Shown here: positions 670 to 35,522 of the stretch, piece by piece | How positions within the stretch are numbered: the stretch's first letter is position 1 | How the letters are laid out: every line of letters starts with the position of its first letter | Assembly (NCBI GenBank): GCA_032718475.1 | Contig: JAUCBJ010001779.1 | Location: forward strand, 1-36,854 | Direction: 5' to 3' | Source: Nemertoderma westbladi | Lineage: Eukaryota; Animalia; Xenacoelomorpha | DNA length: 36,854 bases | The notes under the pieces: generated by a model | Told to the model about the DNA's origin: nothing | The model's database searches: none | Seen by the model: only the letters and a program-made list of their open reading frames with translations | Program-made: the position numbers and the translations under genes

Positions 670-2331
670 TTAGTTATCGGCACCATCGTCATCCCCGGCA
701 CCACCAACGGGATTACCGCGCTCTTCAACCCCGGCGCCGGCACCACCAACGGGATTACCGCCCCCTTCAACCCCGGCGCCAGCACCACCAACGGGATTAC
801 CGCCTTCCACAACCCCGGCGCCGGCACCACCAACGGGATTACCGCCTTCCACAACCCCGGCACCACCAACGGGAAGAGCTCCGTATATGTGGAACGCAAA
901 GTTTCTGTTGGCTGCCAGAACTCGCGTCACGTGAAGACGGGCAGGTTCCACCCCAGAACTGCCTACCAAGTCGGTCGACGTTGCAGATTATCCCCATCCG
1001 AAAATCCACCAACCATTATTTCCGTACCGCTGAGCAACTCCGCATTAACGTGTTTCCTTGCCTCCCTGTTCGTAACGATCTGCGTTTTCGACTAGAAATA
1101 AATTATTATAGTTTTTATAACATTTATACGGCCTATATTAAATAAGTAAATATTTTAGATTCGGTGCATATTAATGTATATTTATATGCTACAATCTGTA
1201 TACCAGTTGTTTACATCATATTATGGTAATAAAGGCTCTGATTAAATAATAATTTATTATATTTATAATCCATTTTATTATTAATTAAATCAATGTATTT
1301 TATACTTACTATTTTATTTCTATTCACATATCTTGTAGACGTTCAAGTTTTACATAACAATTTTTATTAATTTAATATACAATTTATGAATAACATGCTG
1401 TGGATACTTAACATGTTCAGTAATAAAATAACAGAACTTATACCATTAATAATATGAAATATATATAAAACTTTGAAAATATATATTATTTGTTTAGAAT
1501 TCGAACATTTAAATCACTTACTTTCTGATGTTCCTCAGAGAGAGAAACAACCCGGTGAATCGGTTTGAGGTAAACACGTTTACCCTCTCCAACCCTCACC
1601 ACCGGTAAATTTAGAGCGGCGGACAGCGTGCACAACATGGACGGCAAGGATTGCCTGTAGCAGCCGCACAAACTACGATCGCCCTTCAGGCCGCGACAAA
1701 CTGTGCCGCCGCAAACCTTCTTCATTGTCGTCTAAAAAATGTAAAATATATAAGTTTAGTTTGTTGTGTTGTATGACGTTCAGATGGGATTGAACTAGGT
1801 GTATTGCTATTTACGTCTTTATTGGCCTCACAATATGTTGCCTCTATGTTGGACCCTAGAGATTATAATAATCTCAAACCACTCAATATATTTATAATCT
1901 TCATTATTCTTTAGAAAAATATTTTTAAGTCTCCCGCCACGCCCATCCCCATCATTAAATGTTACTTATTCAGTTATTATATATTCTGTCAATAATTATT
2001 GTATGAGTGCCTGTCGAATTAATAGTTTGATAAAAAAAAATATTAACATCAACATACCCCTGTTACCATGTACAAGGAGAACCCCTGAAGATCGGGTGAC
2101 TTTATTAAGTCGTTGATGTTACTTGGTAACTCAGGCAAAACCGCTGGTCTTTCCAGATATAACGGCTTGTGCTTTGTTAATATTGTTGGGAGGTGGGTTA
2201 TCTCCCCACCACGGTAACCCGGCTCAATGATTGCTATAAACGATCCCGTCCCGATCTCATTCACAAAGAAATCATCTGAATCCTCACGGTACTGGTGTAC
2301 CATGACAAATGTTTCATTGGAAGATAATTCC
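670..2331 (-). pseudogene. Decayed multi-exon gene of unknown family (Cys-rich CGGxxC...CGC motif, Gly-rich repeat C-terminus); exons about 2331-2058, 1731-1522 and 1091-670
   Basis: GC-richer blocks bounded by canonical minus-strand splice sites: acceptors ttttttag|2331, ttttttag|1731, tttctag|1091; donors 2058|gtatgt and 1522|gtaagt. The first two exons join in frame (...MVTG|TTMKKVCGGTVCRG...). The last exon has stops in all frames, so frameshifts are needed. No 5' end found. Confidence 0.55.
695..873. repeat. 42-bp GC-rich tandem repeat, about 4.3 copies
   Basis: CACCACCAAC recurs at 699, 741, 783, 825 and 861. On the minus strand it encodes VEGGNPVGGAGAG-type units. Explains the overlapping ORFs at 646-1145. 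Confidence 0.9.
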
Positions 2332-2454
2332 CTAAAAAACAATCATATGTAATATATGAAATCTATGGAAATTAAATGATTTAATTTATTTTATATCACC
2401 TGGTTACATGGATCAATATTTATATAGTCAGAATTACGATAAATAAAACACGTT

Positions 2455-2541
2455 GTTTACCTTTTCGCACCTCGATCCGATTTATATACCTCCCTTGCTG
2501 CACTCGGTCGGTAAATAACAGATCTCGGGGCGATGGTAAAT
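2455..2541. repeat. Short imperfect palindrome (hairpin/MITE-like)
   Basis: tttacc...cgcacctcgatc...ttatatacc pairs imperfectly with ggtaaataa...gatctcggggcgatggtaaa. Confidence 0.35.
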
Positions 2542-2764
2542 AAAGCATATATTATTTGGAAATTTCCGGTTTGGGGGGCACTGAAACGCTAAAAAACGCA
2601 TGTGTCTAAAATACTTTGCACTTGTCTACGGTGGCTGATTTAGGCCACATTTAATTAAATTTTTTTTCAAAGAGGATTAAGAAAAAAATAAACTAAATTA
2701 TATTATTTAGGGGATTAAGAAAACAGAAACAAATTAAACTAAATTATGTGAATATTGATTTTGA

Positions 2765-3217
2765 TTTCTGATTGGTTGGAAAAATAAATAAACTAAATTA
2801 AGTATATTTCTGATTGGTTGAAAAAATAAATAAACTAAATTAAGTTATTTCTGATTGGTTAAAAAAATAAATAAACTAAATTAACTGTATTTCTGATTGG
2901 TTGAAAAAATAAATAAACTAAATTAAGTATATTTCTGATTGGTTGAAAAAATAAATAAACTAAATTAAAATATTTCTGATTGGTTGAAAAAATAAATAAA
3001 CTAAATTAAGTTATTTCTGATTGGTTGAAAAAATAAATAAACTAAATTAAGTTAATTCTGATTGGTTGAAAAAATAAATAAACTAAATTAAGTATATTTC
3101 TGATTGGTTGAAAAAATAAATAAACTAAATTAAGTATATTTCTTATTGGTTAAAAAAAAAATAAACTAAATTAAGGGAGGTTTCTGATTGGTTGAAAAAA
3201 TTGATAAACTAAATTAT
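2765..3217. repeat. Left subterminal array: 11 copies of a 41-42-bp unit, each with a CCAAT box (CTGATTGGTT)
   Basis: ATTGGTT at 2771, 2813, 2854, 2896, 2938, 2979, 3020, 3061, 3103, 3145 and 3187. Confidence 0.95.
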
Positions 3218-3765
3218 ACAGTCTGCATGTAGGCCGGTCAGACAGTTGGACAACTGCTCTCAGACTGCCAGTTTGTGGTACTGGTGTACTGCAGTACTGC
3301 CTGGCCGTGGTCTGTGTGTGGTATATGTCTGTATGCTGTACTGCTGTATGATGTATGAACAGAATCACCAACAACATGGTAAGGGAGGCTACTGTTAAAC
3401 TGTAGTACTGGTACATGTAGCGGTGTAGTGTAGTAGTCAGGTAGTGGTGCCGGTATGCCTGTATGCTATCCTGATGAATTGTTTTAATCTACTATGGACT
3501 GTTTTAATCTATTAGCCTACTAAATGGAAGGGGGGCCTGACAGCCTGATGATCAGGAGAAACGCCGGCTTTTAACAGACTTAAGGAGGGATACCTATCTC
3601 CGTGTGGATGAAGTTTATCGCATATTTCATGATTCTGCATCAGTTGATACTAATAGGTCTTCCTCTACTGGTACGCCTGACAGGTCATGTAAATGGTTCA
3701 CACTCAAACCTATATATGGAAGCTGGGCAATTAACACAGGGTACAATTAGTGACAATGTAAAAAG

Positions 3766-4026
3766 ATGTTGAGGGAGTTCGACCCAAAGTTATTGGAAGC
3801 ATTCGTTCGATTTGTTACTGGTTCAAATCTTCTTGTATGTGAATTTATTGTGGTTGGATTTTTCAAGGAGGACAAGTTCCAATCGAGTTTCGGACGTTCG
3901 ATAACTGCGAGAACATGTACCCCACTGTTAACGTTACCAACAGACTATAACTCCTATATGGAGTTGAAGGAAGAGATACAGAAACTACTCATGAACGGAA
4001 TGGGGTACTTATTTTCAGATTATTGA
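3766..4026 (+). pseudogene. HECT E3 ubiquitin ligase C-lobe fragment carried by the transposon
   Basis: LEAFVRFVTGS...TARTC..LLTLPTDYNSYMELKEEI matches the HECT C-lobe pattern (FL.FVTGS...PxAHTC..L.LP.Y.S...L), catalytic Cys retained. No N-lobe: an in-frame stop lies just upstream at 3751-3753. An open frame at 3541-3750 may be an N-terminal relic. Confidence 0.8.
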
Positions 4027-4759
4027 TCAATACAATGATGTAAAGAAAGTGTTATTGTATATTAATTGTGTTATTTTTTATTGTATATTAATTGTGTTAT
4101 TTTTTAGATACAAATAATCTTTATTCTTATTTTCAATAATTAGTTGCGTTCAAGTTTGTTTACAACCTTTTTCAGTTGCTGAAGTCCCCCCTCCGGAGCC
4201 GGAGGTTTGGTAAAGAGAGGGGGGGGGGGGGGGGGATTTGATGTGATTTGCTTTTCAGTTCACACGTAATACGCACACACATAATGTCCTGCGACTTAGA
4301 TAGATCCTTAGTTACAGCTGATTACTAGTATAAAATTAATATGTAACATGTGCTATCGAGTCTCGTTTGTTGTTTTGGTTACAATCGGTCCGTCACTATA
4401 TAACCTGCACCCTTCTCGACTGAAAACAACGACATGAACTGTACCAGCCTGTTGTGGATGGGGTGGGGGGGGGGGGGGGGGGGGTACAAAGTTGGTTGAT
4501 TGAAGAGTAATAATCCTCATTTACCTAAGTAAATAATGCAAATCTTATTTACCGCTACCATTGACTGAGGGGTAAAAAATATAAATTTTAACAATACATA
4601 TTATTATATAACATATATATTGATATAATATAGTACACATAATGTTGAATTCACACTACTACATTAACCAATGCTTGTTCGACTAATACATCGGCACATT
4701 GCCATAACGTACTACTTTGCTGAGGAGATATAATATGTGGGTTTCTTGATAAGTAATAG

Positions 4760-5607
4760 TCACAGATGTTTGATACAGACCTTCGGCATGTTAATTGTCA
4801 TTACCGAGTTAAATCTGTCAATCAGATTGATATCCTCTATACTAACTGGATGCAAATAGTTTGGATTATCGACAAACAATATGTCAGGTTTACCCCCAGG
4901 TGAAATAAGTCCACTTTTACGAAGTCGGTGGCTATTCCATTGAATTCTATTTCTAATAGAGTCAAGTGTTCTTTGAAGTAAGTCTAAATAAACGTAACGC
5001 ACTATCTCAATATGTAGATTATTAGATGTGTCTATAATGCCATAAATTTCCAGCGATCCAAAGTGAGACAACCAAGTTTGCATGCCGAGCATTGGGAACT
5101 TAGACTACCATGATTAAATGCGCTGATTGCGCGTGCTTTTTCCATATATAAAAACTTGTGGATCAGAAATATTTAGTTCATATAGACGTAAAAGTCGTTG
5201 AAAGAATTCTGCATTGACGTTTTCTGTGCCACGATCAGACCTAATAATGTGCGGGACACCGCCTAGCTCTTTAAGGGCATCAATAAAATATTCACCGATT
5301 ATAAACGGATCATTATTCGTGCGATGGCATTTAAGCCAGAGTAGTTTACGGCTATAGCCGTCGATTCCCCCATGAACAGCCAAACCGTAGGGCTTTAGCT
5401 TGTCCCACCCATCTATGTGTAGTAAGTAATTTGGGCCCTTTGAAATATAAGTACGTCTGACCACTTTCCTACTAATCCTTCTCCTAACTGCGTTCGGTTC
5501 TAATAAACGAAGGAGTTGACCAACTAACTTTTTCGGTACATATAATTTATGATTTAACAATAATAACTTCTGCATTTGCCTATAACCAAGGCCACTCGTG
5601 TTCACTC
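4760..5607 (-). pseudogene. DDE integrase-core transposase (IS3/IS481-like), 5'-truncated with in-frame stops
   Basis: Motifs GYR..., RRTYISKGPNYLLHIDGWDKLKPYG..HGGIDGYSRK, IRSDRGTEN, STRNQRI*SW*S and WNSHRLR. ORFs 5114-5605 and 4760-5092 are in the same frame, separated by TAA (5114-5116, at the expected catalytic Glu) and TAG (5105-5107, at an expected Trp). The 5' end abuts the right TIR array. Confidence 0.9.
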
Positions 5608-5609
5608 AC

Positions 5610-5841
5610 TTTATTTTTTCAACCAATCAGAAATACAGTTAATTTAGTTTATTTATTTTTTTAACCAATCAGAAATAACTTAATTTAGTTTATTTATTTT
5701 TTCAACCAATCAGAAATATACTTAATTTAGTTTATTTATTTTTTCAACCAATCAGAAATACAGTTAATTTAGTTAATTTATTTTTTAAACCAATCAGAAA
5801 TAACTTAATTTAGTTTATTTATTTTTTCAACCAATCAGAAA
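5610..5841. repeat. Right subterminal array: 6 inverted copies of the 41-42-bp CCAAT unit
   Basis: AACCAAT at 5621, 5663, 5704, 5746, 5788 and 5829; truncated internally by the deletion into the transposase. Confidence 0.95.
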
Positions 5842-6056
5842 TCAATATTCGCATAATTTAGTTAAATTTGTTTCTGTTTTCTCAATCCCCTAAATAATAT
5901 AATTTAGTTTATTTTTTTTCTTAATCCTCTTCGAAAAAAAATTTAATTAAATGTGGCCTAAATCAGCCACCGTACTTGTCTGGTGGGAAAACACTTAGAA
6001 AATTGTTCTCATATTCATTTCTACATTGTCAGATTGTCTATATATGAAAAGACTCT

Positions 6057-6413
6057 GATATTTTTCTCAAATTTCCCGGTTTCCTAGGGAAAATACCGGG
6101 AAAAAATACAGGAAATTTGTATCACAATCTTTAGCCTATTCAAAAAAATTTTCGAATATTCATTTAGATAAACATGGTTTTCTCAATAAATACCTGTACT
6201 AAACAATCTGACAATACAAACCAAAACAATAAACGATATTTTTCTCAAATTTCCCGGTTTCCTCGGGAAAATACCGGGAAAAAATACGGGAAATTTTTAT
6301 CACAATCTTTACCCTATTCAAAATTTTTTTCGAATATTCATTTAGATAAACATGGTTTTCTCAATAAATACCTGTACCGGTACTACTGTACTAAACAATC
6401 TGACAATACAAAC
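6057..6413. repeat. Tandem duplication of about 180 bp
   Basis: GATATTTTTCTCAAATTTCCCGGTTTCC...AAACAATCTGACAATACAAAC at 6057-6221 and 6236-6413. Confidence 0.85.
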
Positions 6414-7249
6414 AAAGCAGGCAAATTAATTTCACAATTTTTTTGAGGGAAAGGAGCAGGTTACATAGGCAGGCCTTTCTAACCAAAACAATAAACGGCC
6501 ATTCTGCCACTTTACAGCTTTACCAATCTGCCAATTGTGGGTCCAAAGGAGCAGATTGCAGATGTAGGCTTTCATAACCAAAACAATACAGCAATAAACG
6601 ATAACTTTGGGGTTTGCCCCAAAACAATAAACAGCCACTTTACTAATTGAGGGAAAGGAGCAGGTAACAGAGGCGAGCTTTTCTAACCAACTGACCAAAA
6701 CAATAAAGGATCACTTTACTAATTGAGGGAAACCATATGGTCAGACAATCGGTAGAAAAAATGTTAATGAAAAAAATTGTAAAAAGCGTTTCATAAAATA
6801 AGCGGTACCGGTATATATATAAATATATACAGACAGATATAAGTGTTTTAAGGGACGGTCCCCAAACTGCCAAAGTAACAATACCCGCAGTAGTTATTAC
6901 AGTACCGGTACTGCAGCCAACATGAGTCTGTCAGTCTGTACCTGTAGTTTGAGTCTGCTAGTCTGAGACTACATCTAATGGAAGCTGTTGTCAGGTTTGT
7001 GTTTATACACCTATAGCGGAGGCTATGCTATGGCATGTATGGTACACCAATACAGCAATACTGGTGAACCGGCAACCGGTACAATAAATACTGAAATAAC
7101 AGTTGACAGTAATACTGCAGTTAAGTGCAGTTGTTAAAAAATCAGTGGCCCTGAAACCGGAAAGAGCCAGAAAATGTGCAAAATTCGATTAAAATGGAGC
7201 AATGGAGGGATAGCCTTATGAGGTTTCACCTCGTTTCCATAAGGGTCCC

Positions 7250-9053
7250 TGTCCCTTCGATAGAGACTTATCCGAGTTCGAGCGACAACTTGCAGACTTG
7301 CATATAAACAACGAGTCAAGCGTCGTGAACAATTCTTAAGACGGTAACACCTCCGAACAAACAGCTGCAAATGTAAGTCGACAAAACCCATTTGATATTT
7401 TAGATTGACTATCACCGCACCACTATGTTGACCCAAAAGATTCTCCTTATCCTCCTCTCTATGAATGGTTGAGTCAGTTTGACTCCAGGGGAGTCCATGT
7501 AGCCCATGCTAATATACGCAGCTTGCTTCCTATGATTCCCGAACTAAAATGTATATTAGAACCAGGCTCAATTAATATTCTCACCATTTCTGAGTCATGG
7601 CTTAATGATTCTATCACTAATGCCGAAATTGGTATTCCTGGATATAATATCTTTTGGCGCGATAGGAATAGAAATGGAGGTGGAGTTGCTATCTATATCA
7701 ACTCAAGTCTTGTTTTTAATGTTCTAGAATGGAGTTACAACTGCAAATCTGAGGTCCTATTTTGGTGAACTATCACTACCAAGCACAAAGACAATTCTGC
7801 TTGGTGTGATATACCGACCCGACAGTGACAAAAATATGTTTGCCATTCCTTGGCGATACCTCAAAATACGGAGAGATAATCATTCTGGGGATACTAACAT
7901 AGACCTGTTATAGGTAACTACAAATGCATACCATCCCCCCTTGCTACCGATGGCCTCCTGCAAAGCCTATACAGCTTCACCAATGCACTTGGTGCCAGTT
8001 AATAACTGAAGCAACTCGGGTCACAGCTTTTACAGCCACATTAATTGACCATGCCTTTGTATCGCAACCAAATATGATTACAAGCAGTGGAGTTATTAAG
8101 GAACGATTAAGTGACCACTATAGTGTATACACAAGTACAGTATATAGTGTATAGTACATAGTGTATATAGTACAAGTGTATACATAAGTGTATAAACAAT
8201 TTTTGATACAAGAAAAAGACAAAAACCAAAACCAGCTATTCCCCTGACAAGTAACTGACGTTCTTACTCAACCTAATCCAAAGAGATATTGCTCGAAAAA
8301 CTGACAAATAGTAGTACATCCGTACAAGATTTGCCATATACAATAGATGTCAATACTGCAGCAACCATAGTGGATATTGTGTTATCAAGGATTTTAGATG
8401 ATATTTCTCCATTTCGGAAATGCCGCATAAAATCTTTCTCACAACAATGGGTCGATAGGGAGGTGAAAGACGCAATCATCTCCCGCAATAGAGCGTCTCT
8501 CAAACTCCACAATGAAAGAACACTCCTAAACCAGGAGGCCTTTAGAGTCCTAAGAAACAAAGCAACCAACCTCATAAAATGTAAAAAGGTATCGTACATC
8601 AGTCTACAATTTAAAAATGCAACTGGTGATAGCAAGAAACTGTGGAAAGTTCTTAAGACTATCGGTCCTCCTACTAGAAAGCAAGGAGCCCACTCCAAGA
8701 CAACCACTAAATGCCTTTTAATTGATGGCGAAATTCCACATGATCCATCGAAAGTCTGCGAGCACCTCAATACCTACTTCACTAATATTGCAAAAGAACT
8801 AGTATCAGCAATGCCTAAACCACCAGGCTGTTATGGCTTTGAATCTACATTGGAATACTACAAGGGACTCGGAGTAACGGAGAACGCGTTCAGCCTGCAC
8901 CCAGTTGAAGAGGACGACGTTGCCAAAATATTCTCTAAGATTGACCCCTCTAAAGCTGGAGGCCCTGATGGTATCCCTTCATGCATAATCAATGATGGGG
9001 CAATATTCAACTTGTCTATCTCATCTTCAATCTTTCCTGATAACTATAAAATA
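7250..9053 (+). mobile_element. L2/Crack-like LINE ORF2, 5' part (APE endonuclease and pre-RT region), degenerate
   Basis: APE motifs HANIRSL, ISESWL, RDRNRNGGGVAIY, IYRP, TLIDH and LSDHY; then SKKLWK, LNTYFTNIA, KAGGPDGIP and IFNLSISSSIFP. Several stops and frameshifts. Confidence 0.9.
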
Positions 9054-11178
9054 CAGTCCCGCTCTCAAAAGGCATTCCTTTGATCAAACATTGATCAAAC
9101 TTTGATCAAACATTGATCAAATATTGAAATGTATCAGGCTTATAAATCCTGCCATTGAGTTCTACCAAAGGCGCTGCACTTCAAAGTCTAGATTCCCACT
9201 GAGCTGTGTGTCAATCAAGCAGCCCTAACTCTCTCTCTCTCTCTCTCTCTGCTCTCTGTGTGTGTAATGCTCCATGTGCTCTGTAGGATGTCTGCAGATC
9301 ACACAGGACACCACTTCCATATCATACCATAGGTTTGTAAGCTATAGCCGTTATTTAAACCAGTTAAAGCCTAGGTTATAATAATTTACAGCGATTATCA
9401 GAAAATAACAGCCGCAATTGAATCTCCACTTGGCGGTGTGGTGGTAATGAAAGCAAGGGCGGGTAGGGGCTGTGTGGAGCTTAATTCTGAGTTACGCAAT
9501 GTGTTGGGTGGATGGCTTCAATACATTAGAATGGGGGGGGGGGGCACTAGCGTACCGAGGGGGAGGCCATGTGAAAGCATACTGAAGTCTTTCCAGTTGA
9601 AATGAGAACAAAAATAATATATATATATATATTAAAGATCCACATTCCAAATTTTCTGAAACAAAAGCATTTTCCTAAAGGGGGGGGGGGGGGGGGGGGG
9701 GGGGTAGTTAATATAAGAATAGCCCTTGGTATTATTATATCAGTTGACATTTCAAGTCACAACAAATTATGTCATAGGGAGTAAAGGAGTCAGCGGTCTC
9801 AGTGCTATTTGCTGTATATTATTAGCTTGGGGTGTCGACAGCGACAGACCACTAACAAAGTAAAGGCATAGCATGTGTAATGGCTCTTAGCTTATGCCGC
9901 CCCAGCATGTAAAACCAATTATCTGCTGTGGAATGGAATTCCCCGAAATTTCGAAATTTACTATAAAGTCTTCCCAAGAAATTAGACAGCCAACTAACCC
10001 ACACACAGGAGGCCGCCAACCAAAGAGATTGGCCTCCTGGCACTGAGCTGGCCTAGTCGCAAAGGAACTATGCAGGTAGTAATGTGTACTAAACAATACT
10101 AATGGCTACAATACATTATAATGGGGGGGGGGGGGGGGGTGTGCAGGTCCGCAGCTTGTACAATGATATAGTCATAGTCCACAACAAGAGAGGGGATGGG
10201 ATCACTGGGGTTATATTGATGCTTTGTCCTTGTCTTACAACGACCTGTGAGCAAAAAAGTGTGGTTTGTCGGCCGGATGGTTAAAACCCTCCATTAATTA
10301 AAAATGAATGAGCATAATTTAATAAGTATTACTAACCCAATTTGATTTTTAATATTTAAAAAATTATAATTACAATACGTTAATCTGAATTAAAAAATAC
10401 GTAACTAATGATGTACATAACATAGTTTATTTTAAAACAAATGAGATTTTCAAGTAGTGAGTATTAAAATTAAATTACGTACATTTTTAGAAGGTATTTT
10501 AGGGGGTGCGCTGGCGCTAGCGCTCGGATTTATTTATTTCTTTATTTACATTTATTAGTATAATTAGAGACAGGGGCAGGAAGGAAGCTTGTCGAATTTA
10601 CACAATTACTGTATAAGCAAATGCAATGCAACGGCAGCCATCGCGCTGCTATGTCAATGGAGGTCTTAAGGAACATTGAAACTAATTTCTAATATAACAA
10701 TAATTTAAAAATATTCCAAAGGATGTTTTTCTGAACTGGTTGTTAGTGTAATAATAGGCCCTGCCCTACAAGAACAAGACTCAGTCTGGGACACTACCAC
10801 AACACTGCCATGTAAATCCAATCGGGGTCCATCCACAAAGTCAAGCAAGCTCCATCCACTGCCCTGTCAATCAAATAGCGACTTGGCCATTAACAAAAGC
10901 CAGTTCTCGGCGGGAATCTGAGTTCAAAGGCTTGCCGCAGTTGAGAGATTTAAACTGTTACCTTGAAATCATTTCAACGTCATTTCAATATGAGACAGAA
11001 AGTCTGGAATTTCGGTGCGTCGATTTCAAGGTCATTTCAATATGCCATCAATGTCATTTCAATGTCAATGCTACTTTCAATGATATTCTATGGACACATT
11101 TTGATCAAACTTTGATCAATGTTTGATCAAAGTTTGATCAATGTTTGATCAAAGGAATGCTTTTTGAGAGCGGGACTG
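9054..11178. mobile_element. Non-autonomous TA-flanked DNA transposon (Tc1/mariner-like) inserted in the LINE
   Basis: About 68-bp TIR CAGTCCCGCTCTCAAAA(G/A)GCATTCCTTTGATCAAAC... containing repeated TTGATCAA palindromes; TA at 9052-9053 and 11179-11180. Removing it restores LINE FPDNYKIAGVVPAHKKG. No transposase seen inside. Confidence 0.9.
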
Positions 11179-11180
11179 TA

Positions 11181-12735
11181 GCTGGTGTAGTCCCTGCCCA
11201 TAAAAAAGGTCCAGTGATAATCAGCGGTAATAACAGGCCCCTTTCCAACCTTCCAATACTGTCGAAAATACTTGAACGCATTGCATATGACCAAATGTTT
11301 TTCTATGTAACTTCAAAACACCTTATGAATAAGTTCCAGTCTGGATTTCGACCTAACCTACCAAGGAGCCACCTTAAATGAATCCCTTACTGGTATGGAA
11401 ATGGTGCTTAGAGTATTAAAAAAAGGAAACTCGCGTCTACGCTTCCTTCATCGACATGGTGCCATCCTCGACCGCTCCCTTAGATGACTACTTTGCAACT
11501 CACTCATCCAGCCACACATTGACTATGCTGCATCCACTTGGTTTTTCACCATTACAAAGAAACTTCGAACTAATGTTGAAGCCCTTCAAAGAAAATGCAT
11601 CCGTTTCTGCCTCCGTCTTGGCCCTCGTATCCACATTAATGCTACACATTATGTTGCAATCAACTGGCTTCCCCTCCGCGAGCGAGTGCAATCAGTTATT
11701 TTTATCACACATGTTTAGAGTCAGAAACGGCCTCTCGCCAGAGTACATGAACGACATGGTCATACTTTCAATGAAGGACGAAGCGGTCTCCGCTCTTCTC
11801 AAGATAGGGCATTGATTCCCGATCGGAAGACAATTTATGGACAGACCACTTTCAGTTTCTATGGTCCCAAACTATGGAATGCACTCCCAAAGGTTCTAAC
11901 TGAATGCTCTTCATTAGTAACATTTAAACATAAACTGAAGGACTACTTACTGACTAAGATCGAAGATTCATCCATCTTTCTCTATACTTAATTTTTAACG
12001 AATTTTAGACCGACCGATACAATAATATCTTTCTATTTATTTAATTTTTAACGTATTTTTTTAGATTGATAATATACTACTCTTGTTATTAACTCAGGCT
12101 TAGACCTTCCGTTCCCACAATACTTAAGTTCTCTATGGTTCCAACCCATCTACAGAATGTACTGTACTCAGTGTCTACCTTTTGTTTCAATTTGATCTTT
12201 TTTTACTCTTAGATAAACCACAGTATCTACTGTACCTTTAATTCAATTTTATCTGCTTTTTTACTCTTTTATATACTTACCGCTAATTATATATTCACAG
12301 ATATTTATTTGACCCGAGTTTTATTCTGGACCCTCATGGAAACGAGGTGAAACCTCATGAGGCCATCCACGTCACTACATACGCTATCCTTCTTGTTTTT
12401 ACAGTACGTTACATTAATTATATTTACACTCATATTTACATACATATTTACATTTATATTCACTACATACGATATCCTTATTATTTATACTGTACATTAC
12501 ATTAATTATATTTTACCTATGCTTGTGATGTTGAGACCCATTGTTTTAAAACTAATGCAATTGTGCAACATTTCTCATGTTACCGTTCCATATAGGTATG
12601 TACAGTACACTACTATGCATAGTTATATAATATTAATTGTTGTTTCTCATCGTTTTTTCGCTTTACATTGCGATTTTATCTGTTTAGTGCATATAATTTG
12701 TTGTTGACTTAAAAAAATCAAATCAAAATGAAATC
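11181..12735 (+). mobile_element. L2/Crack-like LINE, 3' part (RT start, RT core deleted, C-terminus, 3' UTR and tail)
   Basis: NNRPLSNLPILSKILER and FQSGFRPN, then a jump near 11362 to ESLTGMEMVLRVLKKGNSRLRFLHR; FYGPKLWNALP near 11860-11890; stem-loop at 12328-12368; (AAATC)-like tail at 12716-12735. Confidence 0.85.
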
Positions 12736-13794
12736 TGCCTGTGCTCTATGCAGCCCAGGTTGGAATTCATGCATGACCGCGCAGGTACGCTTTGTTGTTT
12801 CGAGATCACCGCGCACCGCACCCTAAATTGGCTCGTCCAGTCGTCGCGCACCTCATCATAATCCATATAAAATCGCGCAGCTCATAAAAACAATTTTACA
12901 GTCCTACATATTTTACAAGTTTGAGCGTTTCAAAGCTTATCTTACTGTCTTAGTACTGTACATCTGTACGTTGAATCTACATAATAAATGAAAATGTTAC
13001 ATCAAAATTGTTAATATTAAAAAAAAAAATTTATCCTCTACATTTACATTTGAAAATACAATACTCCAGTACTCTACTGTATAAAATTTGAATAAAATAT
13101 GCAATAGTTAATTATTATTAGGTACCAGTAATACTTAGTATACCTAACAATTAGGCTTAACATACAGATATTGGTAGGGCTCGATCGGAGCTCCGGCCAT
13201 TTTGGCACCTCCGGCTCCGGTAAATATATTGCAGGAGTTAATTTTTTAATAAAGTATTATATTTCGTGCATATTCTAATCTGGACAATTATTTACACTAG
13301 GCCTATAAAGTACTGTAGTGCTTCAATATCAAGCATAATACTGCAGTATTAACTTACAGTACAGTCAAAGTCAATGACTGACTAACTCTGAGTCACACAA
13401 TATTAGTCCAACTGTCAACAGTGGTACTCCAGCACTTCGGGTCTGTATGACAATGTGAACTTTAAAATGTTTCAGTTTAGTACAACAGTGGTAGGTCATA
13501 GGGTACCGTACTGCCGTAGCCTAATAATGTAATAATACAGTACATGTACAGTACAGCAGTAATAGGCCAAGGCCTGTCAACACATACACCAAAAATGTAA
13601 TGGTGGTTATCGTACTCCGTACTGCAGTACTGGTACTGGCTGACTAGCAGAGTAGACAGGTAGGCCCTACTCCAGTACTCTGCTACTGTCAGACTGTAAA
13701 AAATTGTAAATGCTATGATTGTACACTGTACCACTGCAGCCATTTACAGATTTACTGCTGTCATGCCAGGGCCAGCATACTGTACAAGGCAGCA

Positions 13795-14076
13795 AGGGCT
13801 CAACCGAAGCTTCGGCTTCCGTTCGGGCCGAAGTTTGGCAATTTCGGTTCGGCTTCTGCGATTGATACTGCAGAGGCCCGGAGCAAACTTTGCTAAATAT
13901 TCCAAGTATTACATCAGTACATTGACTGATTGAGCTAAGACCAGAAGACATTACCGGTAAGACTAATCAATCTGCTGAGCTGATCTGTCCATCATTGTAC
14001 TAATTAATTTTGGACTGAACTTATTCCATATTCCATCTGACCATTTAGAAGGCATTATTTTATTAATTGTTTCCAG
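13795..14076 (+). mobile_element. Partial copy of the hAT MITE left end (empty-site version)
   Basis: Colinear with 15637-15837 plus 17018-17063 and lacks the 15838-17010 insert. Confidence 0.85.
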
Positions 14077-14212
14077 TTCCATCAGTCCATTATTCCACCG
14101 GCAGACCGGTGCTATTTAGATACTGATGCTTGTTACCTACTGTACCTAAGAAGGCTAACAATTTTGAAATTACAATCACCCAGGTTGGAATTTATGTAGA
14201 GTTTGCTCAACA

Positions 14213-14351
14213 TGTGTGGCGCGGATTAAGGATCCTGGCGCGTAGTGATGTAGTGACAGGGCTGCAGGGGCGTGTGGCGCGGATTAAGGATCCTGGCGCG
14301 TAGTGACAGGGGCGTGTGGCGCGCATTGAGGATCCTGGCGGTCCTGGCGCG
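14213..14351. repeat. Imperfect tandem repeat of TGTGGCGCGGATTAAGGATCCTGGCGCG (3 copies)
   Basis: Copies near 14215, 14273 and 14315. Confidence 0.8.
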
Positions 14352-14507
14352 AATATGGATGTAGTGTTAGCTCCTGTTAGCGTTAGGTTGGGACAGTCTG
14401 ACAGTAGGAGGTAGCGTAGCTGTAGCAGTGCACTAGCAACACATCCCACTCTACAGCATACAGCTCTATTTGAAATTATTCCATAGGTTTAAAAAGATTG
14501 AAAAATG

Positions 14508-14976
14508 TCCGCTCGCTTCGCTTGCGTTTATACTGTGACTGTAAATCTACTCTTAGTACTGTCTGGCTGTGGACAAATGGAAACGGACAGATTGTTTAGA
14601 TTACATACGGACAGATTAAAAACATGACTTATTGTTTCAAACGTTTTTCAATTGTCAGATTCTTCAAACCAATAAAACCATGAAAGCCTGCATGATTCAG
14701 CAGAATTTCCGTGCTCGCTAAGCTCGCAGTCGCAATTTACCGGTAAAAACATCTGCATTTCTGCATTTGAAAACAGTCGGTTTGCCAACTTTAAATGTTG
14801 AAATGTTAAAATTTTCGTGCTCGCTACGCTCGCATCTTGATCACATCTGCATTTAAAAACAGTCAGTTGACGTTGACCTACTACTACTACTACAACTACA
14901 GCACTATCTGACTATTACTGTCAGACTGTATTTATGTTAATATAATTGGAAAATTTCCTTGCTCGCTACGCTCGCA
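14508..14976 (+). repeat. Four spaced GCTCGCT(A/T)(C/A)GCT(C/T)GC motifs, probably internal repeats of a DNA-transposon relic
   Basis: Motif near 14511, 14713, 14819 and 14961, each after an (A)nT(T)C-like tract. Confidence 0.5.
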
Positions 14977-15164
14977 TTTTAATGTTAACATACTGTAGGG
15001 CTACAGAATTCAGGAATTATAAACTGATAAATTATTACAATTAAGCAATTACTGCAAAATTTCATAGTCAATTGTCGGCTTGGCGCGCATTAGATATCAT
15101 GGCTGGCGCGATTTTCGTTTAACCAGAACGCGTGTGGCGCGCTTTTTGTCAGTATTCCATATAG

Positions 15165-15628
15165 GACAATCACTAGAACATAGACGAGTGCATATTGCTG
15201 TATTGACCTAATTCAGTAATTACTGTTTTTAAAATACTCAATGGTTTTATTTCACTAGAATCTAATAATTTATTTGTAAATGTAAATTTATCTTCAATAA
15301 GACTGAGGGGGCACCCTTATAAATTGCAGCAGGCAGGCAGGGACATTCAGACATTGCAGAACTGTTGCGGTACAGAACTCATTTACAAATCGTGTTTGCC
15401 TGTTTGGAACAATCTGCCTTACGTTGCAGTAACTGCCCCCTCAGTCTGTCAGTTGAATTGTTCAAACGCCATATTTATGTGTGCGATTATAACAATTGGA
15501 TTAAATTTGACCGCAATTTGTAACTATGCCAATTTCTAATTATTTTCTATTTTTCATATCATTAGTTCCAGAGTTCTATCTGAGCTGCTGAGTTCAACTC
15601 TTTTTAGCGATCTACACTTTTATTTTAA
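15165..15628 (+). mobile_element. CR1-like LINE 3' fragment; its 3' UTR probably resumes at 17659-17826 after the hAT insertion
   Basis: FKILNGFI...RLRGHPYKL...VWNNLP motifs; (ATATA)n-like tail at 17802-17826. Confidence 0.7.
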
Positions 15629-17650: not shown

Positions 17651-18152
17651 CATGTCAGCATGTAATAATATTTTAGCTTATTTTAATTTAGTTTTTAATC
17701 TTATTTTAATATGGTGCCATAGTATAGGCCTAAGTCGTTTTGTTTTATTCACTGTTTTTATTTATATGCTTCTCCTTCTATGACAGCGGTGTCTCCACCC
17801 AAATAATATAATAATATAATATAATAGTCAGATAGTTAAGATACCGGATACAGAACCTCTAGCTGTCTAGTGCACTGTTAACAAACACACGATGGAGATT
17901 TGTATATAGTAAAGTATGAAGTACTGTAGAAAGATACATAAAATACACCGGGACCGGTATACCCTTGAACACTTCACTTTGGCTATTGTTTTTCCGTTTC
18001 TGTACAGTAATATCCCTTACAGCCTTACTACCGGTACTTGTACTACCTTTACCTGTTTACCTTACTACCTGTACTGTACTACCTTACTGCCTTAGGCTTA
18101 GAGTTATCGGTTTATCATATAACAGCTGACAGTCTAATATCTGAATATAATT

Positions 18153-19745
18153 ATGGAGAGTTCTGGATCTAGTGTTCCTATTCATCTTTCGGAGGTTGAG
18201 AAGCAATATTACTCGCGGATGTTCTCTTTGTGCGACGCTGGAAATACTGGAAAATTAACTGGAAAAGATGTCACCAGACTCTTCCTAAAGTCCAAGCTTA
18301 ACACCGATGTTCTGGCAAAAATTTCGGAACTTTGCGGGGCGAGGCGATTAGGTTATTTCGGGCGAAGTCAATTTTATGTCGCTCTAAAACTAATCGCGGC
18401 GATTCAGTCAGGAAGAAATTTAAATATCGACAGCGTTTCCGCTTCCGATGTGCCTCTTCCGAGTTTCTCAGGAGTTCCGCTTCCGGCTAGCAGCAGTAGC
18501 GAGACCCGCAGTCACTCCACCAGTTCCTTCTCCCCTCAGCCTCCCAAATCCCCATTCGAAATCTACAATTCCCCAACGTCGAGCGGCCAAACTCAACATT
18601 ACAGTCCGGCTGCTGCTGCTGTTCCCAGTCAAGCGACACCTGGTCGCGGCCCCGGCAACAACGCAACGTCCGACTGCAACGGACAGACGGCGGACCCGTG
18701 GACAATCACAGAGGAGCAGCGCCGTTACTACACCGGCCAGTTCCTCAGCCTCCAACCCAGCCCTTCCGGGACAATAAGCGGCCTAGTTGCGCGATCCTTC
18801 TTCCAAAAGTCGAAACTCTCCATCCCGGAGTTGTCGCACATTTGGCAGCTTTCAGATCGCGATCAGGATGGGAATCTTTCCCTCGAGGAATTCGCCATCG
18901 CGATGCATCTGGTTGTGGCGAAGCGTCACGGAATGTCGCTGCCTTCAGTCCTACCCGGTCAATTAGAGTTAACCTCCGGGGTGACCGTAGTGGAATCCAA
19001 CACCCCCCGGACCCCGGCCGCACCCCTCACGCCTCCCGCCGCCCCCCGCATCGACCCCAAGCCCCCTCCGTCCCCCGTCACCGACGACTGGGCTCGCTTC
19101 TCCCCCGCTCCCCCCTCCTACAACCCCGACGACGCCCCTGCCTCGCCCTCCTCTCTCCCGCACCCCCACGCCCTCAGACCGACCCCCGGGGGCCCCCAAC
19201 TCGCCCCCTCCGCCACGACAACCCCCCTTCCCGTCTCATTCCAACCGCTACGCGCCGCCGGCACCCTAGACCCGCCCCCCTCTCGGCGTGTCGCGCGTAC
19301 GATGTCGACTAAACCCGCGAGCAATCCGCCCACGAAACCGCCGCATAAGAACTACCTGTCGGACGGAGCGTGCGAACTCGGCGACGCCTCCGATGTCCCG
19401 GAACCCGCGGGACTCTCTCGCCAACGGAAGTGCCACTCCCGCAGTAACTCGCTTGACCTACAGAAACTCGGGTTCGAACCGACTCCGGCTCCGCGCGGCG
19501 ACACCGGTTTCGCGGATTTCGACCAACAATTCGGCGCGGTTTCCAACGCCACCCCGAGCCACGATAGCAGCGTCGAGTCGCTACGAACTCGGGAGCAGCT
19601 GACGGTTAGTATAACTGAGGCGACACACAGGCGGGAATACCTCACCCGGTCCAACAAGCAATTAGAACAACAGTTAAACCAACTCTCTATGTCGAGGGTT
19701 TCTCTAGAAGGGAAAGTCGCCCGAATTGAGAAGGAGTTGGATTAG
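18153..19745 (+). CDS. REPS1: RalBP1-associated Eps15-homology domain protein (REPS1/REPS2 family), 530 aa, single coding exon
   Basis: N-terminal EH-like domain with ELCGARRLGYFGRSQFYVALKL; second EH domain DPWTITEEQRRYY...FFQKSKL..ELSHIWQLSD.D.DG.L...EF..AMHLVVA; Pro-rich region; HSRSNSLD motif; C-terminal coiled coil. Confidence 0.95.
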   Translation: MESSGSSVPIHLSEVEKQYYSRMFSLCDAGNTGKLTGKDVTRLFLKSKLNTDVLAKISELCGARRLGYFGRSQFYVALKLIAAIQSGRNLNIDSVSASDVPLPSFSGVPLPASSSSETRSHSTSSFSPQPPKSPFEIYNSPTSSGQTQHYSPAAAAVPSQATPGRGPGNNATSDCNGQTADPWTITEEQRRYYTGQFLSLQPSPSGTISGLVARSFFQKSKLSIPELSHIWQLSDRDQDGNLSLEEFAIAMHLVVAKRHGMSLPSVLPGQLELTSGVTVVESNTPRTPAAPLTPPAAPRIDPKPPPSPVTDDWARFSPAPPSYNPDDAPASPSSLPHPHALRPTPGGPQLAPSATTTPLPVSFQPLRAAGTLDPPPSRRVARTMSTKPASNPPTKPPHKNYLSDGACELGDASDVPEPAGLSRQRKCHSRSNSLDLQKLGFEPTPAPRGDTGFADFDQQFGAVSNATPSHDSSVESLRTREQLTVSITEATHRREYLTRSNKQLEQQLNQLSMSRVSLEGKVARIEKELD

Positions 19746-24255: not shown

Positions 24256-24593
24256 TACGGTGGCTGATTGTGGTCAATTATTTCCATTTTTTAATGTTTT
24301 TCACCCGGGTGAAAAACATTTATCACCCGGGTAAAAAACATTTAAATGTTTAACTATTGACTTTTGTTTATTGTTTTGGTTAGAATAACATGCCACTGTA
24401 ACCTGATCCTTTCCATTAATTGATTATTAACATTGGTCGAGATATTAATTCGCCAAAAACTCTATAAGGAAACTAACTACTGTACATGTGTTTAGAGTTC
24501 TGACACCTATTTTTCACCCGGATGATAAATGTTTTTTACCCGGGTGAAAAACATAAAAAAAATTGAAATAATTGGCCGCTATCAGCCACCGTA
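24256..24593. mobile_element. 338-bp MITE with the same termini as the IS3EU-like element
   Basis: TACGGTGGCTGAT...ATCAGCCACCGTA; flanks AGTATG (24250-24255) and AGGATG (24594-24599), a 5/6 TSD match; subterminal TCACCCGGGTGA palindromes. Confidence 0.85.
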
Positions 24594-29444: not shown

Positions 29445-29876
29445 TTAACTAAAAAATGCAAGTTTGGAATCTAACCATTCCTCCGTTAAATCCTCTTTAT
29501 TTCGGACTTCAAATACTTTAGTGAGCTCCGCTGTTTTTACTATGTTCAACTTACTCCCCGCGTACATCATCTGAACCTCCGGCTTACAACCAGAGGGCGA
29601 ACAAAAAATGAAACAGTAGGGATATGAGACCCTCCCGTCGTCAAACCTTCTAATACTGGAATAAACAATATATCTGGGTTCGTGGTCTGGTAATTCCTCT
29701 TGCAAAGCATCAAGGTTTTCAAGGTCGTCGTAGCATTCTTCGGTAACTACCGTCATTGTCGATTTGTTGATCTTCAAAATAATCGCGGCTCGATTTTTGT
29801 CTTTCCGAAATCGGAATTTCCGAAGTTGCTTCGCAACGTCTTCGTGGAGAGCACAAACGGTTAAAGTGTCCGACAT
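29445..29876 (-). CDS. GMF: Glia maturation factor (ADF-H/cofilin family), 143 aa, single coding exon
   Basis: MSDTLTVC...LRKFRFRK...AAIILKI...ELPDHEPRYIVYS...DDGRVSYP.CFIF.SP.GCKPE.QMMYAGSK...TAELTKVFE.R...DLTEEWL..KL.FF gives a full-length match to GMFB/GMFG. AATAAA on the minus strand at 29388-29393. Confidence 0.97.
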   Translation of the reverse strand: MSDTLTVCALHEDVAKQLRKFRFRKDKNRAAIILKINKSTMTVVTEECYDDLENLDALQEELPDHEPRYIVYSSIRRFDDGRVSYPYCFIFCSPSGCKPEVQMMYAGSKLNIVKTAELTKVFEVRNKEDLTEEWLDSKLAFFS

Positions 29877-30170
29877 GTTGCTAAAAATGTCAGTAAATCA
29901 GTACAACAGTAAAGGTACCGGTAACTCCAGAACTCTTTACTGCGTTAAACTACTGAACTACAGTACTGCAGTAGGCCCACTGAATACTGGAATACAAGCA
30001 ACAAGCGCACGGTCACTGTAGCTACTGCATACTGGCTGACTACTACTGGGAATTGTGTTAATAATATCTCGTCCAAGGCGTACTATATACAAGGCCATGC
30101 CATCGAGTTAACTGGGGGCGGTGGTGACTGGGGGCAAGATTTTTTTGACAACAATTTGATATGTTGATAT

Positions 30171-31968: not shown

Positions 31969-32507
31969 TGCCTGCACACACACAGTACAGCAGTACGCTA
32001 CCGTTTGTAATCCATCCTCCATAAATTATGAAGGCTGCACTCTTGCAAGGCCTTTAATAGAGTACGCTATGGGCTGGCTGCTTACTAGTATTATTATATA
32101 GGTATTGTACTGTATTGTTACCCAGCTACTGATAAGTTACATATTAAAATGTAGAATAAATGGACTCAATCACAGCTCAACGCAAAATATGTAACTTTCA
32201 ACGCCCATTATATCTCAGATATTCCTGTTGAAAAATTTCTGAATTAATTACATGTTTAGTTTCCCTGCAACAACGTCATCTTCCATTCGTTACCAACGAA
32301 CCCTCTATAAGATTAAAATATCGACTGAGATACCTATTTAAAGCGCTTGTAGGTAAGGATTGAAAGCGAAGGCGGGTTGATATCTCGACACGGGGAATTA
32401 ACAAAAAATTTAATTATCAATAAATTTGTTTTAGTTATTCTAACCAAAACAATATGTGACAAAATTTTAGGGATTATGGAAATACGCCTTATATTATCAT
32501 ATTTTTT

Positions 32508-34000
32508 TTTTGATTCGGTGGTGCACTCTAAGCTTTTGGCAAAACTGTCTTCATATGGTATCTGCGGCAATTTACTACATAGGTTGGATTGGTGCATTTT
32601 TGGCTAACAGAACTCAACGAATAGTGGTTGGTAATTGTTTTTCTGAAATTTGCAAGGTTACTTCAGGCACTCCCCAAGGTAGTGTTCTGGGACCTGTCCT
32701 GTTTCTGATTTTTATAAATGACCTTCCGGTGCTATTAGACTCTGTTACAGTTAAACTATTCGCTGATGACGTTAAACTATATTCTCCTGTTGTCGCTAAT
32801 TGCAGTAATGCTAATCTTATTTCACAATCGCTTAACACGTTAGGTAACTGGGCTATCAGTTGGCAGTTAGGAGTGGCTGCCCATAAGTGCTCAGTTATAC
32901 AAATTGGTATTACAAATCCTTTGTTAACTTATTCACTCAATGACAAGCCGATTAAATCAGTTTGTCATTGTAAAGATTTAGGTATTACTGTGTGCGACAA
33001 CCTTACAGTTCGATAAATATTGTCGTGAACAAGTAGCTAAGGCTTATAAAATCTCTAACATGATTTTTCGTTGTTTCTATACGAACAACGAAAAGGCATT
33101 GCTTTTAGCCTACAAGGCATATGTTAGGCCTTTACTAGAGTATTGTACTCAAGTATGGTCGCCGTTCACGATGGGTAGTATCGATCTCATTGAAGGTGTG
33201 CAACGTTATTATACGAGACGTCTTTATCTTCGGTGCAATCTAGGTAGGACTAGTTATTTCGAACGATTGAAGCATTTTAAGCTGCAACCATTAGAAATTC
33301 GCCGTATTATTTATGATCAAAAAATGGTTTTTTCTATTTTACACGGTCTGATAGATTTATCCTTTGATGATTTTTTCTCTTATCCAGTGCGTAGTGGATT
33401 GAGAGGACACAACCACAAGCTATTGGTTAACTACAGTAGACTGCAAATTTCGAAATTTTCGTTTGCCAATCGCGCGATTCCAATATGGAATTCATTAGAC
33501 GCAACAGTAGTAGATTCAGAGAGCTTACTCTCTTTTTCACGTAAATTACTCGATGTTGATTTGCTGCATTTTTGCAAATTTGATAGAAACTTGGCGTGAT
33601 CCTTTTTAACTATTTTTTAATTAATTATTTTTTACTTATTTTTAATTCAGATTCGTCATTGTAATTAATTGCTTTTAGTACCGGTACGGTTTCTGCTTCA
33701 CTACTGTTTCATTAGTTTTTATTCGCTTAAATATTTAGTTTATAGATATAATCAATGTTCCTTGCTTTATTTATAGTGTATTTGCTTTCTTTAATTATTG
33801 TTCATACCTTATTTTATATTAATAAGTTTCATCATTCTGGATTTTTAGTGTATGGCCCCCATAAGTGCAGTTAAAGCCTAGGCGGTCTTCTCCCCTTTTA
33901 TAATTACTTATAATTTAGTGCATGCATAATTTATTATGTTTATCGCATGAATGTTTATTTTACCATGGTCTGAGTGTTGATAATAATAATAATAATAATA
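32508..34000 (+). mobile_element. 5'-truncated CR1-like LINE (RT core, C-terminus, 3' UTR, (TAA)n tail)
   Basis: SGTPQGSVLGPVLFLIFINDL, FADDVK, KDLGI, YVRPLLEYC..VWSP, LRGH..KL and WNSL; (TAA)n at 33981-34000; disrupted near 32590 and 33016. Confidence 0.92.
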
Positions 34001-34269: not shown

Positions 34270-35522
34270 TCAAGTTGATATATCGTTATATCACTCCTAG
34301 ATCAGGTGTTATTCTCTGCACAGTATATTAATAAAAAAATCCCCTCAAAAAAATTGCAGGAATGCAATGCCATTTTGTTTGTACTGTATGTGTGTTTTGC
34401 TGGTTTTGGGTGTAGTTAGTTAGAATAACATGTGTCCTGCACGGCTTAGTGTAGCTGATGAGCCAAATCACAGGGAAAAACGTGCAAAAATGTACCGGTA
34501 ACTAAATATAGGGCTAAAATATTATTTTTCCTAAATTATTCAAATTGAGGAAAACGTTTTAGAACTATATTGAAGAAGGGTTTAGTTAGTGAGTTAATTT
34601 ATTGACAGAAATCAGCAACAATCAAAATTTTACAATAATAATAATATTCACTTTTCGGAACCGTCACCAAAAACGAGGAAACCAAAAAAATAAGGTAACA
34701 AATAATGCACAGTTATAAACAAAGCAACTGAGACAAAGCAAGCACGGCAACACACTGCAGCTTCCATGGGCGTTAATATGTAGCGACTATACAGATATAA
34801 TTCCGATAAAAACTGCTTCATTAATTACTTAATAGAGACAGGGGGGGGGGGGGGGGGGGACTCGACGCAAAACCCGCCTTGGCGAATTAGTATCCCGCCT
34901 TAATGTTAAATTCTCAATTTAGGGAAAGGAGCAGGTTACAGTGGCACGATATTTTAACCAAAACAATAAACTAAACACAATAGAACAGGTTACAGTTTTA
35001 TTTTTGAGAATAATCAGCTGTTATTTGCGTCCAATTTCCCCTGGAGGAGGGATAAATTTTTACTGCGTCCAGTTTCCCCCCCTATCTTACTTAATAACAG
35101 CAAAAATAACGAAACAACATACCAAAAATGAACACGGGGCTACGGTGGCTATGATCTTTGCCAATTAATTAATTTTTTTTTCAGAAGTTCTCCATGACGT
35201 CATAATTTATGGTCGACCAGAAATTAATTTTTGGTATATATGTAGTTGTAGTGTGGCGCACTAAAATCTAACTGCCGCGCCGACGCGTTCTGCGGCGCGA
35301 TCTTTGTTTGTAAGTATTCCGGTCAGGTGGCCTGGGGCTGTACTCATGCGCAGGTACTGCGTACTGGCAGACGTTAATACTGTAATATAATACAGTACCG
35401 GTAATATTTATTGTCTATGTCGTCACCCGTATTCTGCCCCAACTTGCCCCACCGTACTGCCGTAGCTGTAGCATTGCGCATTTTAATAATTCCCGGTCTA
35501 CCGGTAACAATAATTTGACATA

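Follow-up and report, generated by a model that had tools for sequence, protein, structure and literature searches.

DNA transposons of the IS3EU/GingerRoot superfamily are described as having TA..TA ends, 6-bp target site duplications (TSDs) and an integrase-like DDE core in the parts of the published accounts available to us (PMC10045372, PMC6839031). Partial texts further describe the superfamily as encoding two proteins (PMC10853768) and as little studied (PMC11934779). In fungal TET+ IS3EU families, an alpha-kinase gene (plus TET/JBP) is placed opposite the transposase, according to the accessible portion of one study (PMC12730594). Here we describe an element of this kind at positions 2627-5974 of a 36,854-nucleotide stretch of Nemertoderma westbladi DNA (GenBank assembly GCA_032718475.1, contig JAUCBJ010001779.1, positions 1 to 36,854 of the forward strand; the whole stretch is hereafter the window), in which the gene convergent to the transposase is the remnant of a HECT ubiquitin ligase. 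The element shares TAYGG..CCRTA ends, a 6-bp TSD and a second enzyme gene opposite the transposase with the fungal families; it differs in the partner, which in fungi is an alpha-kinase and not a HECT protein, and neither 'HECT' nor 'ubiquitin' occurs in the available text and supplement of that study (PMC12730594).

The word 'HECT' is likewise absent from the portions covered of the IS3EU/GingerRoot texts PMC10045372, PMC6839031, PMC10853768, PMC11934779 and PMC12730594 and from the three supplements searched. No published text linking HECT to IS3EU/GingerRoot was found when titles and the starts of abstracts were judged, although Repbase, Dfam or Kojima's review may name HECT. Protein names ending in _2p in Repbase, IS3EU-1_CGi_2p among them, point to an annotated second protein. 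As far as the search extended, a HECT partner of IS3EU/GingerRoot is not described in print, and prior annotation in Repbase is likely. Widespread as the superfamily is, its second gene has been little studied; the pairing puts a name to that gene and makes it testable.

An earlier note on this DNA had proposed that 2627-5974 is a unit bounded by terminal inverted repeats (TIRs) and TSDs, and the ends proved to be exactly these. The hexamer CTTGTC at 2621-2626 recurs perfectly at 5975-5980, and the left TIR (2627-2688, plus strand) pairs with the right TIR (5913-5974, minus strand) over 62 nt, the arms being 98% complementary. The first letters are TAC (2627) and the last GTA (5974); with TACGG at 2627 and CCGTA ending at 5974, the termini follow the TAYGG..CCRTA rule of IS3EU/GingerRoot. 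The CTTGTC pair supplies the 6-bp TSD, the TIR exceeds 30 bp and is accompanied by inverted subterminal arrays, remnants of two convergent genes correspond to the two proteins, and the DDE domain is of the IS3EU lineage (Pfam PF24764, E-value 6e-19; motifs were set beside Repbase IS3EU cores by eye). Sharing TA..TA ends, TSD length and an integrase-like DDE core with that superfamily, 2627-5974 is an IS3EU/GingerRoot DNA transposon with a HECT C-lobe convergent to its transposase. The 'IS3-like DDE transposase' of the note was correct as to the DDE enzyme, and its type is here refined to IS3EU/GingerRoot.

Between the TIRs and the genes lie subterminal arrays. The left one (2764-3216, plus strand) comprises 10.9 copies of a 42-bp unit and carries AACCAATCAG on the minus strand within 10 of these units, while the right one (5610-5842, minus strand) comprises 5.6 copies of the same unit inverted, with 6 AACCAATCAG sites. 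All 16 perfect AACCAATCAG sites of the window fall inside the arrays and are mirrored between the element ends. We take AACCAATCAG to be CCAAT-box/NF-Y-like on the basis of the NF-Y consensus. The 18-nt terminus of the element, allowing up to three mismatches, occurs at four places in the window against 0.03 expected, namely the ends of this element and those of a second, small one. The latter, at 24256-24593, is a 338-bp non-autonomous IS3EU-type element whose ends, TACGGTGGCTGAT, are common with the main element. Its flanks, AGTATG and AGGATG, form a 6-bp TSD with one mismatch; it has inner 22-bp repeats and is too short to hold a transposase or ligase gene.

The ligase survives in the window as a HECT C-lobe at 3759-4026 on the plus strand, with the Cys codon at 3916-3918, a stop at 4024-4026 and a Phe four residues before the C-terminal end (4012-4014). 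Pfam PF00632 (HECT) matched 3754-4023 with an E-value of 2.5e-4 and 21.2 bits, covering profile positions 221-304 of 306, which is the C-lobe only. The note had expected a HECT profile match at 3766-4026; the match is there, and its strength falls below the curated Pfam cut-off of 23.9 bits. When the piece was aligned with a HECT family profile built in this analysis, hhalign gave a probability of 99.4 and an E-value of 1.4e-21, and the Cys of its ARTC motif (3916-3918) lined up with the invariant catalytic Cys of relatives, in agreement with the note's C-lobe with an intact Cys reading inward from the left. The genuine HECT remnant starts at an internal deletion junction (3758/3759), at which most of the ligase gene, including the N-terminal domains and the HECT N-lobe, has been lost. 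A possible first ligase exon begins at ATG 3524 (3524-3666, plus strand), in a frame broken by 8 extra bases at 3535 that are missing from contigs of four public runs; the 3541-3747 frame gives no match to the HECT-protein family profile, and this assignment stays tentative.

The transposase (rva_4) lies at 4760-5605 on the minus strand, reading inward from the right TIR as the note had it, with its N-terminal part missing. The lost part takes in the region upstream of the core, where IS3EU/GingerRoot elements have no HHCC motif. PF24764 matches it in two in-frame pieces, 5117-5605 (the match cited above) and 4763-5104 (E-value 6.2e-7). Its Asp codons are at 5411-5413 and 5234-5236, and two stops interrupt the frame, one at 5105-5107 and one at 5114-5116, where the catalytic Glu would stand; D, D and E are invariant across 77 aligned transposases. 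These stops, together with a 5' deletion, leave the window transposase broken. Compared by eye, its motifs IDGWDKLKPYG, GTEN and NQRI resemble those of the subgroup of IS3EU-1_CGi, IS3EU-4_CGi, IS3EU-1_DR and AD_GR-003, and the named relatives that it matches are from marine invertebrates, which together with the animal-like long frames elsewhere in the window makes an invertebrate animal the likely host.

Fuller copies were sought in public sequence data, which are contigs and as such uninformative on copy number and expression. Most words of the element interior occur in three runs, which stem from two samples under one organism label. Public contigs show 0 differences from the window HECT piece over 322 bases and then diverge at 3758/3759; one runs 1006 extra bases before 3759 and another 798 after 3758, the continuations on the two sides are unlike, and none of the public contigs bridges the window junction. 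Over the 30 letters preceding 3759 in a public contig, the HECT frame is stop-free (read by eye). The public runs differ at 5106 and 5116, which yields sense codons where the window has stops, and their contigs carry a longer 5' part of the transposase. Because these contigs extend past the breaks and lack the stops, the window copy is read as having arisen by deletion in a family that also has fuller members, much as the note's phrase 'deleted and dead' had put it. With both genes broken, the window copy adds little alone.

Comparison with related loci was more informative. A transposase alignment search gave 80 metagenome loci (the best 80 of 475 confirmed, with 29 of 64 parts scanned), and a further 7 loci were contigs of prokaryote assemblies, for a total of 87; in viral contigs, 84 pattern matches to the transposase yielded 0 confirmed. 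These loci were searched with a profile iterated from the window HECT piece. A HECT C-lobe was present at 27 of the 87 (25 once two near-duplicate pairs were merged), and in 27 of 27 it lay downstream of the transposase on the other strand, matching the window. By the amount of downstream sequence available, it was found at 20 of 30 loci with at least 2 kb, 15 of 17 with at least 3.5 kb and 9 of 10 with at least 5 kb; upstream, it was found at 0 of 19 loci with 1.5 kb of sequence there. Pfam confirmed HECT in the locus frames, for example at L001 (E-value 6.2e-16) and L077 (1.4e-10). L077 holds a complete 9.4-kb element (3215-12608) with a 171-nt TIR, the TSD GATTGT and both genes; beside the transposase, the N-terminal, middle and HECT parts of the second gene are spread over three frames. 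At loci where HECT was not found, Pfam showed no alpha-kinase or other partner within the element among 31 open reading frames downstream of the transposase. Matches to DDE_3 and Pkinase, both at L087, were rejected as partners, as they lie outside the terminal motifs of that locus.

Selection on the HECT was assessed in 19 pairs of at least 70 codons and at least 45% identity, an identity floor that favours a low proportion of non-synonymous differences (pN). Between families, pN was 0.26-0.42 and the synonymous proportion (pS) 0.67-0.94; 14 of the 19 pairs were saturated, and the remaining 5 gave ratios of non-synonymous to synonymous substitution rates (dN/dS) of 0.11-0.34. On these comparisons, the HECT is under purifying selection between families. 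The results bear on the possibility that the HECT is a host fragment captured once and carried as a neutral passenger. Plant GingerRoot elements do capture gene fragments (22 of 77, in the part of that study available; PMC6839031), the HECT is missing at 10 of the 30 loci with at least 2 kb downstream, and the window piece by itself is a C-lobe only. However, the 27 loci share position and orientation though their transposases are mostly 40-70% identical, the protein is conserved while synonymous sites are saturated, and longer copies occur in public runs of one organism label. Some absences are also those of shortened elements: TIR-bounded transposase-only units occur at L027 (perfect TSD), L033 and L079, two of these HECT-less loci (L027 and L033) are short derivatives, and L033 retains the 5' part of the ligase gene. 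A passenger is thus largely refuted by the pairing and the selection results, and we consider it very improbable. Since many elements of distant relationship hold the same gene pair, the ligase belongs to the element as a regular component, and the element almost certainly carries its own HECT ligase gene. The note's proposal that the parent element encodes its own E3 is accordingly favoured by the sequences of other family members, and the one-off capture that it had named as the refuting outcome was not borne out.

The form of the whole second protein was deduced from relatives. A HMMER search with the HECT fragment led to 113 representative proteins, of which 38 longer ones were aligned; a word-index protein search with the same fragment gave 43 candidates and no match among longer proteins. 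Homology to frames at the loci (E-values to 1.6e-131) appears to tie these proteins to the element. In the 38, an N-terminal helical module is followed by a basic stretch and a ubiquitin-like domain, after which a variable linker leads to a whole HECT. The helical module is likely a SAM domain, judging from one Atlas cluster (SAM_1 in 24% of members) and a look at the alignment; SAM was absent from the Pfam matches of the 38, and an Atlas search with residues 1-180 returned unnamed clusters only. The AlphaFold model of one relative, P0124 (predicted local distance difference test, pLDDT, 82.3; predicted template modelling score 0.60), resembles HECT structures across both lobes (HUWE1 HECT, Foldseek E-value 9.1e-13). 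Its best structural match is UBR5 (Z-score 21.8, 313 residues aligned, root-mean-square deviation 4.6), and of this bilobal C-terminal fold the window copy retains the C-lobe alone. Residues 70-177 of P0124 have a ubiquitin-like fold (Z 7.5-9.5). A UBX-like domain was detected at locus L010 (22.3 bits, cut-off 21), in one of the 38 aligned proteins and in 38% of one Atlas cluster. The second protein is likely SAM-like plus ubiquitin-like plus full HECT.

In the portion available of a survey of HECT ligases, G2E3 and 'GL-Metazoa' are divergent host families and transposons are unmentioned (PMC3673628). The element ligase is like the class IV ligases of that survey (UBR5/EDD, G2E3, GL-Metazoa) in having a highly divergent HECT, with UBR5 as top structure. 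It differs in its SAM-like and ubiquitin-like N-terminus: G2E3 is described there as having three RING/PHD-like zinc fingers before the HECT (PMC3673628), and no RING or PHD finger was found among the Pfam matches of the 38 aligned relatives at an E-value of 0.1. The HECT C-lobes form two types (Shimodaira-Hasegawa-like approximate likelihood ratio test 99). Named members of the window's type are from carp-family fish, beetles and an electric fish, the last with two loci in one 90% cluster. In sturgeon, reedfish, eel and corals, proteins of the second type carry the name 'G2/M phase-specific E3 ubiquitin-protein ligase-like'. Genes of aquatic animals and beetles that are filed as host 'G2E3-like' or 'HECT domain-containing' genes are likely transposon cargo, and mobile ligases filed in this way would inflate counts of HECT family expansion. 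Other DNA transposons have ubiquitin-system cargo, including an F-box and a SUMO protease in Zisupton and Ulp1-type proteases in Mutator and Ginger. In these, too, an enzyme of the ubiquitin/SUMO pathway is a regular gene of a DNA transposon; they are proteases or adaptors, whereas in the element described here a separate convergent gene supplies a complete E3 catalytic domain.

Conservation within the HECT speaks to its activity. The catalytic Cys is invariant in 38 of 38 aligned relatives and kept in 25 of 27 locus rows, which comprise the window and 26 loci (the duplicate L057 being left out); the two exceptions bear other lesions. A Phe four residues from the end of a HECT (residue -4) is needed for ubiquitin transfer. 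Of 113 proteins of the window's type, 60 have Met here and only 19 have Phe, a pattern that would suit a second protein that is a needed but catalytically idle subunit of the transpososome, its HECT fold serving as a scaffold or a binder of ubiquitin or E2. The high divergence of the HECT points the same way (15 of 21 full-length relatives pass the Pfam cut-off, mostly narrowly), as does the vertebrate G2E3 HECT, that of the nearest named host relative, which is reported as non-functional in the available part of the survey (PMC3673628). Yet the window itself has Phe at residue -4, 111 of 120 proteins of the other type carry Phe or Tyr there, both HECT lobes are present in the P0124 model, and the Cys is retained as described. 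We regard an idle subunit as improbable; the HECT protein of the element is, on this conservation, probably an active ubiquitin ligase.

Because a HECT domain plays no part in DDE chemistry, its target becomes the question: an E3 encoded by a transposon would either regulate the element's own transposition or serve as a weapon against silencing by the host. We give a little less than an even chance to the element's own transposase as the main substrate. In such a scheme, both genes would be transcribed inward from the subterminal arrays, whose AACCAATCAG sites could drive both; other loci lack such CCAAT arrays, with a single match in 7 of 87 and an array in 0 of 87. The N-terminal SAM-like and ubiquitin-like part would dock onto the transposase, and the HECT domain would ubiquitylate it and limit its level. 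Tagging might alternatively lead to a very stable post-insertion complex being taken apart, possibly via p97 where the second protein has a UBX-like domain; by analogy, ClpX acts on the phage Mu transposase. When the L001 transposase was modelled together with the first 356 residues encoded by the L001 second gene, the complex scored 0.54, against 0.00 for the best of 3 controls. Contact agreement among the runs was at least 19% and partner pLDDT at least 65, and the result was rated weak support, so that the note's suggestion of a role in regulating the transposase finds some, if slight, backing from modelling. Of 78 solved pairs 51 reached the mark used, as did 2 of 108 mismatched ones; with a score of 0.60 or less, only 5 of the 78 solved pairs reached it, whereas all 4 mismatches that passed lay in that range.

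The ligase could instead act on the host, as an anti-silencing or anti-repair factor whose SAM-like and ubiquitin-like domains engage, and whose HECT ubiquitylates, chromatin proteins such as Polycomb PRC1. PRC1 subunits have SAM and RAWUL domains, and Polycomb ULD/RAWUL chains head the ubiquitin-like matches of residues 70-177 (5fr6 Z 9.5, 3gs2 8.4, 2na1 8.2, 5jh5 8.1); they are, however, tied with USP11 (Z 8.8) and kindlin (Z 8.4), so the fold does not single out Polycomb. Swapping of HECT types among transposase lineages would suit a host-directed tool, and the fungal IS3EU TET/JBP genes are proposed to counter silencing in the accessible part of that study (PMC12730594), but the single complex modelled points weakly to the transposase. 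A host target of this kind seems to us rather unlikely.

Our most inclusive hypothesis is that a branch of animal IS3EU encodes a SAM-ubiquitin-like-HECT E3 that docks on its cognate transposase, with host ubiquitin and p97 controlling or dismantling the transpososome, that the 'G2E3-like' genes of fish, coral, mollusc and beetle are these ligases, and that the host G2E3 HECT may share their origin. Taken as a whole, it is tentative and falls clearly short of probable. Several observations weigh against an active ligase that binds and ubiquitylates the element's own transposase. The HECT is not universal in IS3EU, because the fungal families, in the portion of the study available, have an alpha-kinase in that slot (PMC12730594). 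The G2E3 HECT, reported as non-functional, counts here too. A model score of 0.54 lies in a band that is more often wrong than right without a strong prior expectation, and L001 belongs to another family than the window's. The sole near-identical pair, L031/L058, has 10 non-synonymous and 0 synonymous differences in the C-terminal part; one copy is decayed, with the Cys lost and the gene split. On the transposase tree, HECT type changes 4 times in the best tree (9.1 with shuffled labels), and at least 3 changes are forced by strong branches. The transposases of L012 and L019 are 82% identical while their HECT C-lobes fall in unlike subgroups, which marks the two as candidates for a recent ligase-gene exchange between elements. 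Free swapping of the HECT poorly fits a tight one-to-one interface, although the swap was measured on the C-lobe and not on the N-terminal part.

One transposase clade of 9 holds a single HECT type, and pairwise HECT and transposase identities are weakly correlated (Mantel rho 0.25, p 0.0012), which is no proof of co-evolution because kin share labels. HECT types only partly follow the transposase tree, which suggests module swaps, and our reading is that the HECT would be an old partner that spans the deepest split sampled and has been exchanged between lineages. The congruent phylogenies anticipated by the earlier note were thus found in part, with fewer changes than under shuffling and yet with HECT types that switch between lineages; dN/dS below 1, which it had also named, was seen between families in the 5 unsaturated pairs, and L031/L058 showed no purifying signal.

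IS3EU-like transposase pieces on prokaryote-assembly contigs (L081, L082, L085, L086, L087 at 8566-15414 and L084 at 1107-3077) are likely eukaryotic contamination. Among the prokaryote-assembly loci, a 439-kb Nitrospirales contig has terminal motifs to either side, one of the Sedimenticola contigs bears a convergent HECT, and a Myxococcales bin contains a 657-residue frame. In the window, to the right of the element, a 178-bp tandem pair lies at 6057-6377 and a repeat at 6275-6847. For the latter, contig depths in three runs sum to 30,000-447,000, compared with about 100-400 inside the element; it is very high-copy on the basis of contig depth, a measure that gives no copy number. Decayed long interspersed nuclear element (LINE) endonuclease frames were recognized by eye at about 7500-7900 (within 7400-9100), with no Pfam match at an E-value of 0.001, and a reverse-transcriptase fragment lies at 32471-33013 (RVT_1, E-value 1.8e-12). 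Long open frames at 18138-19742 (plus strand, EH-domain), 29448-29897 (minus strand, cofilin) and 35514-36644 (plus strand, INTS15) look like ordinary host genes or exons.

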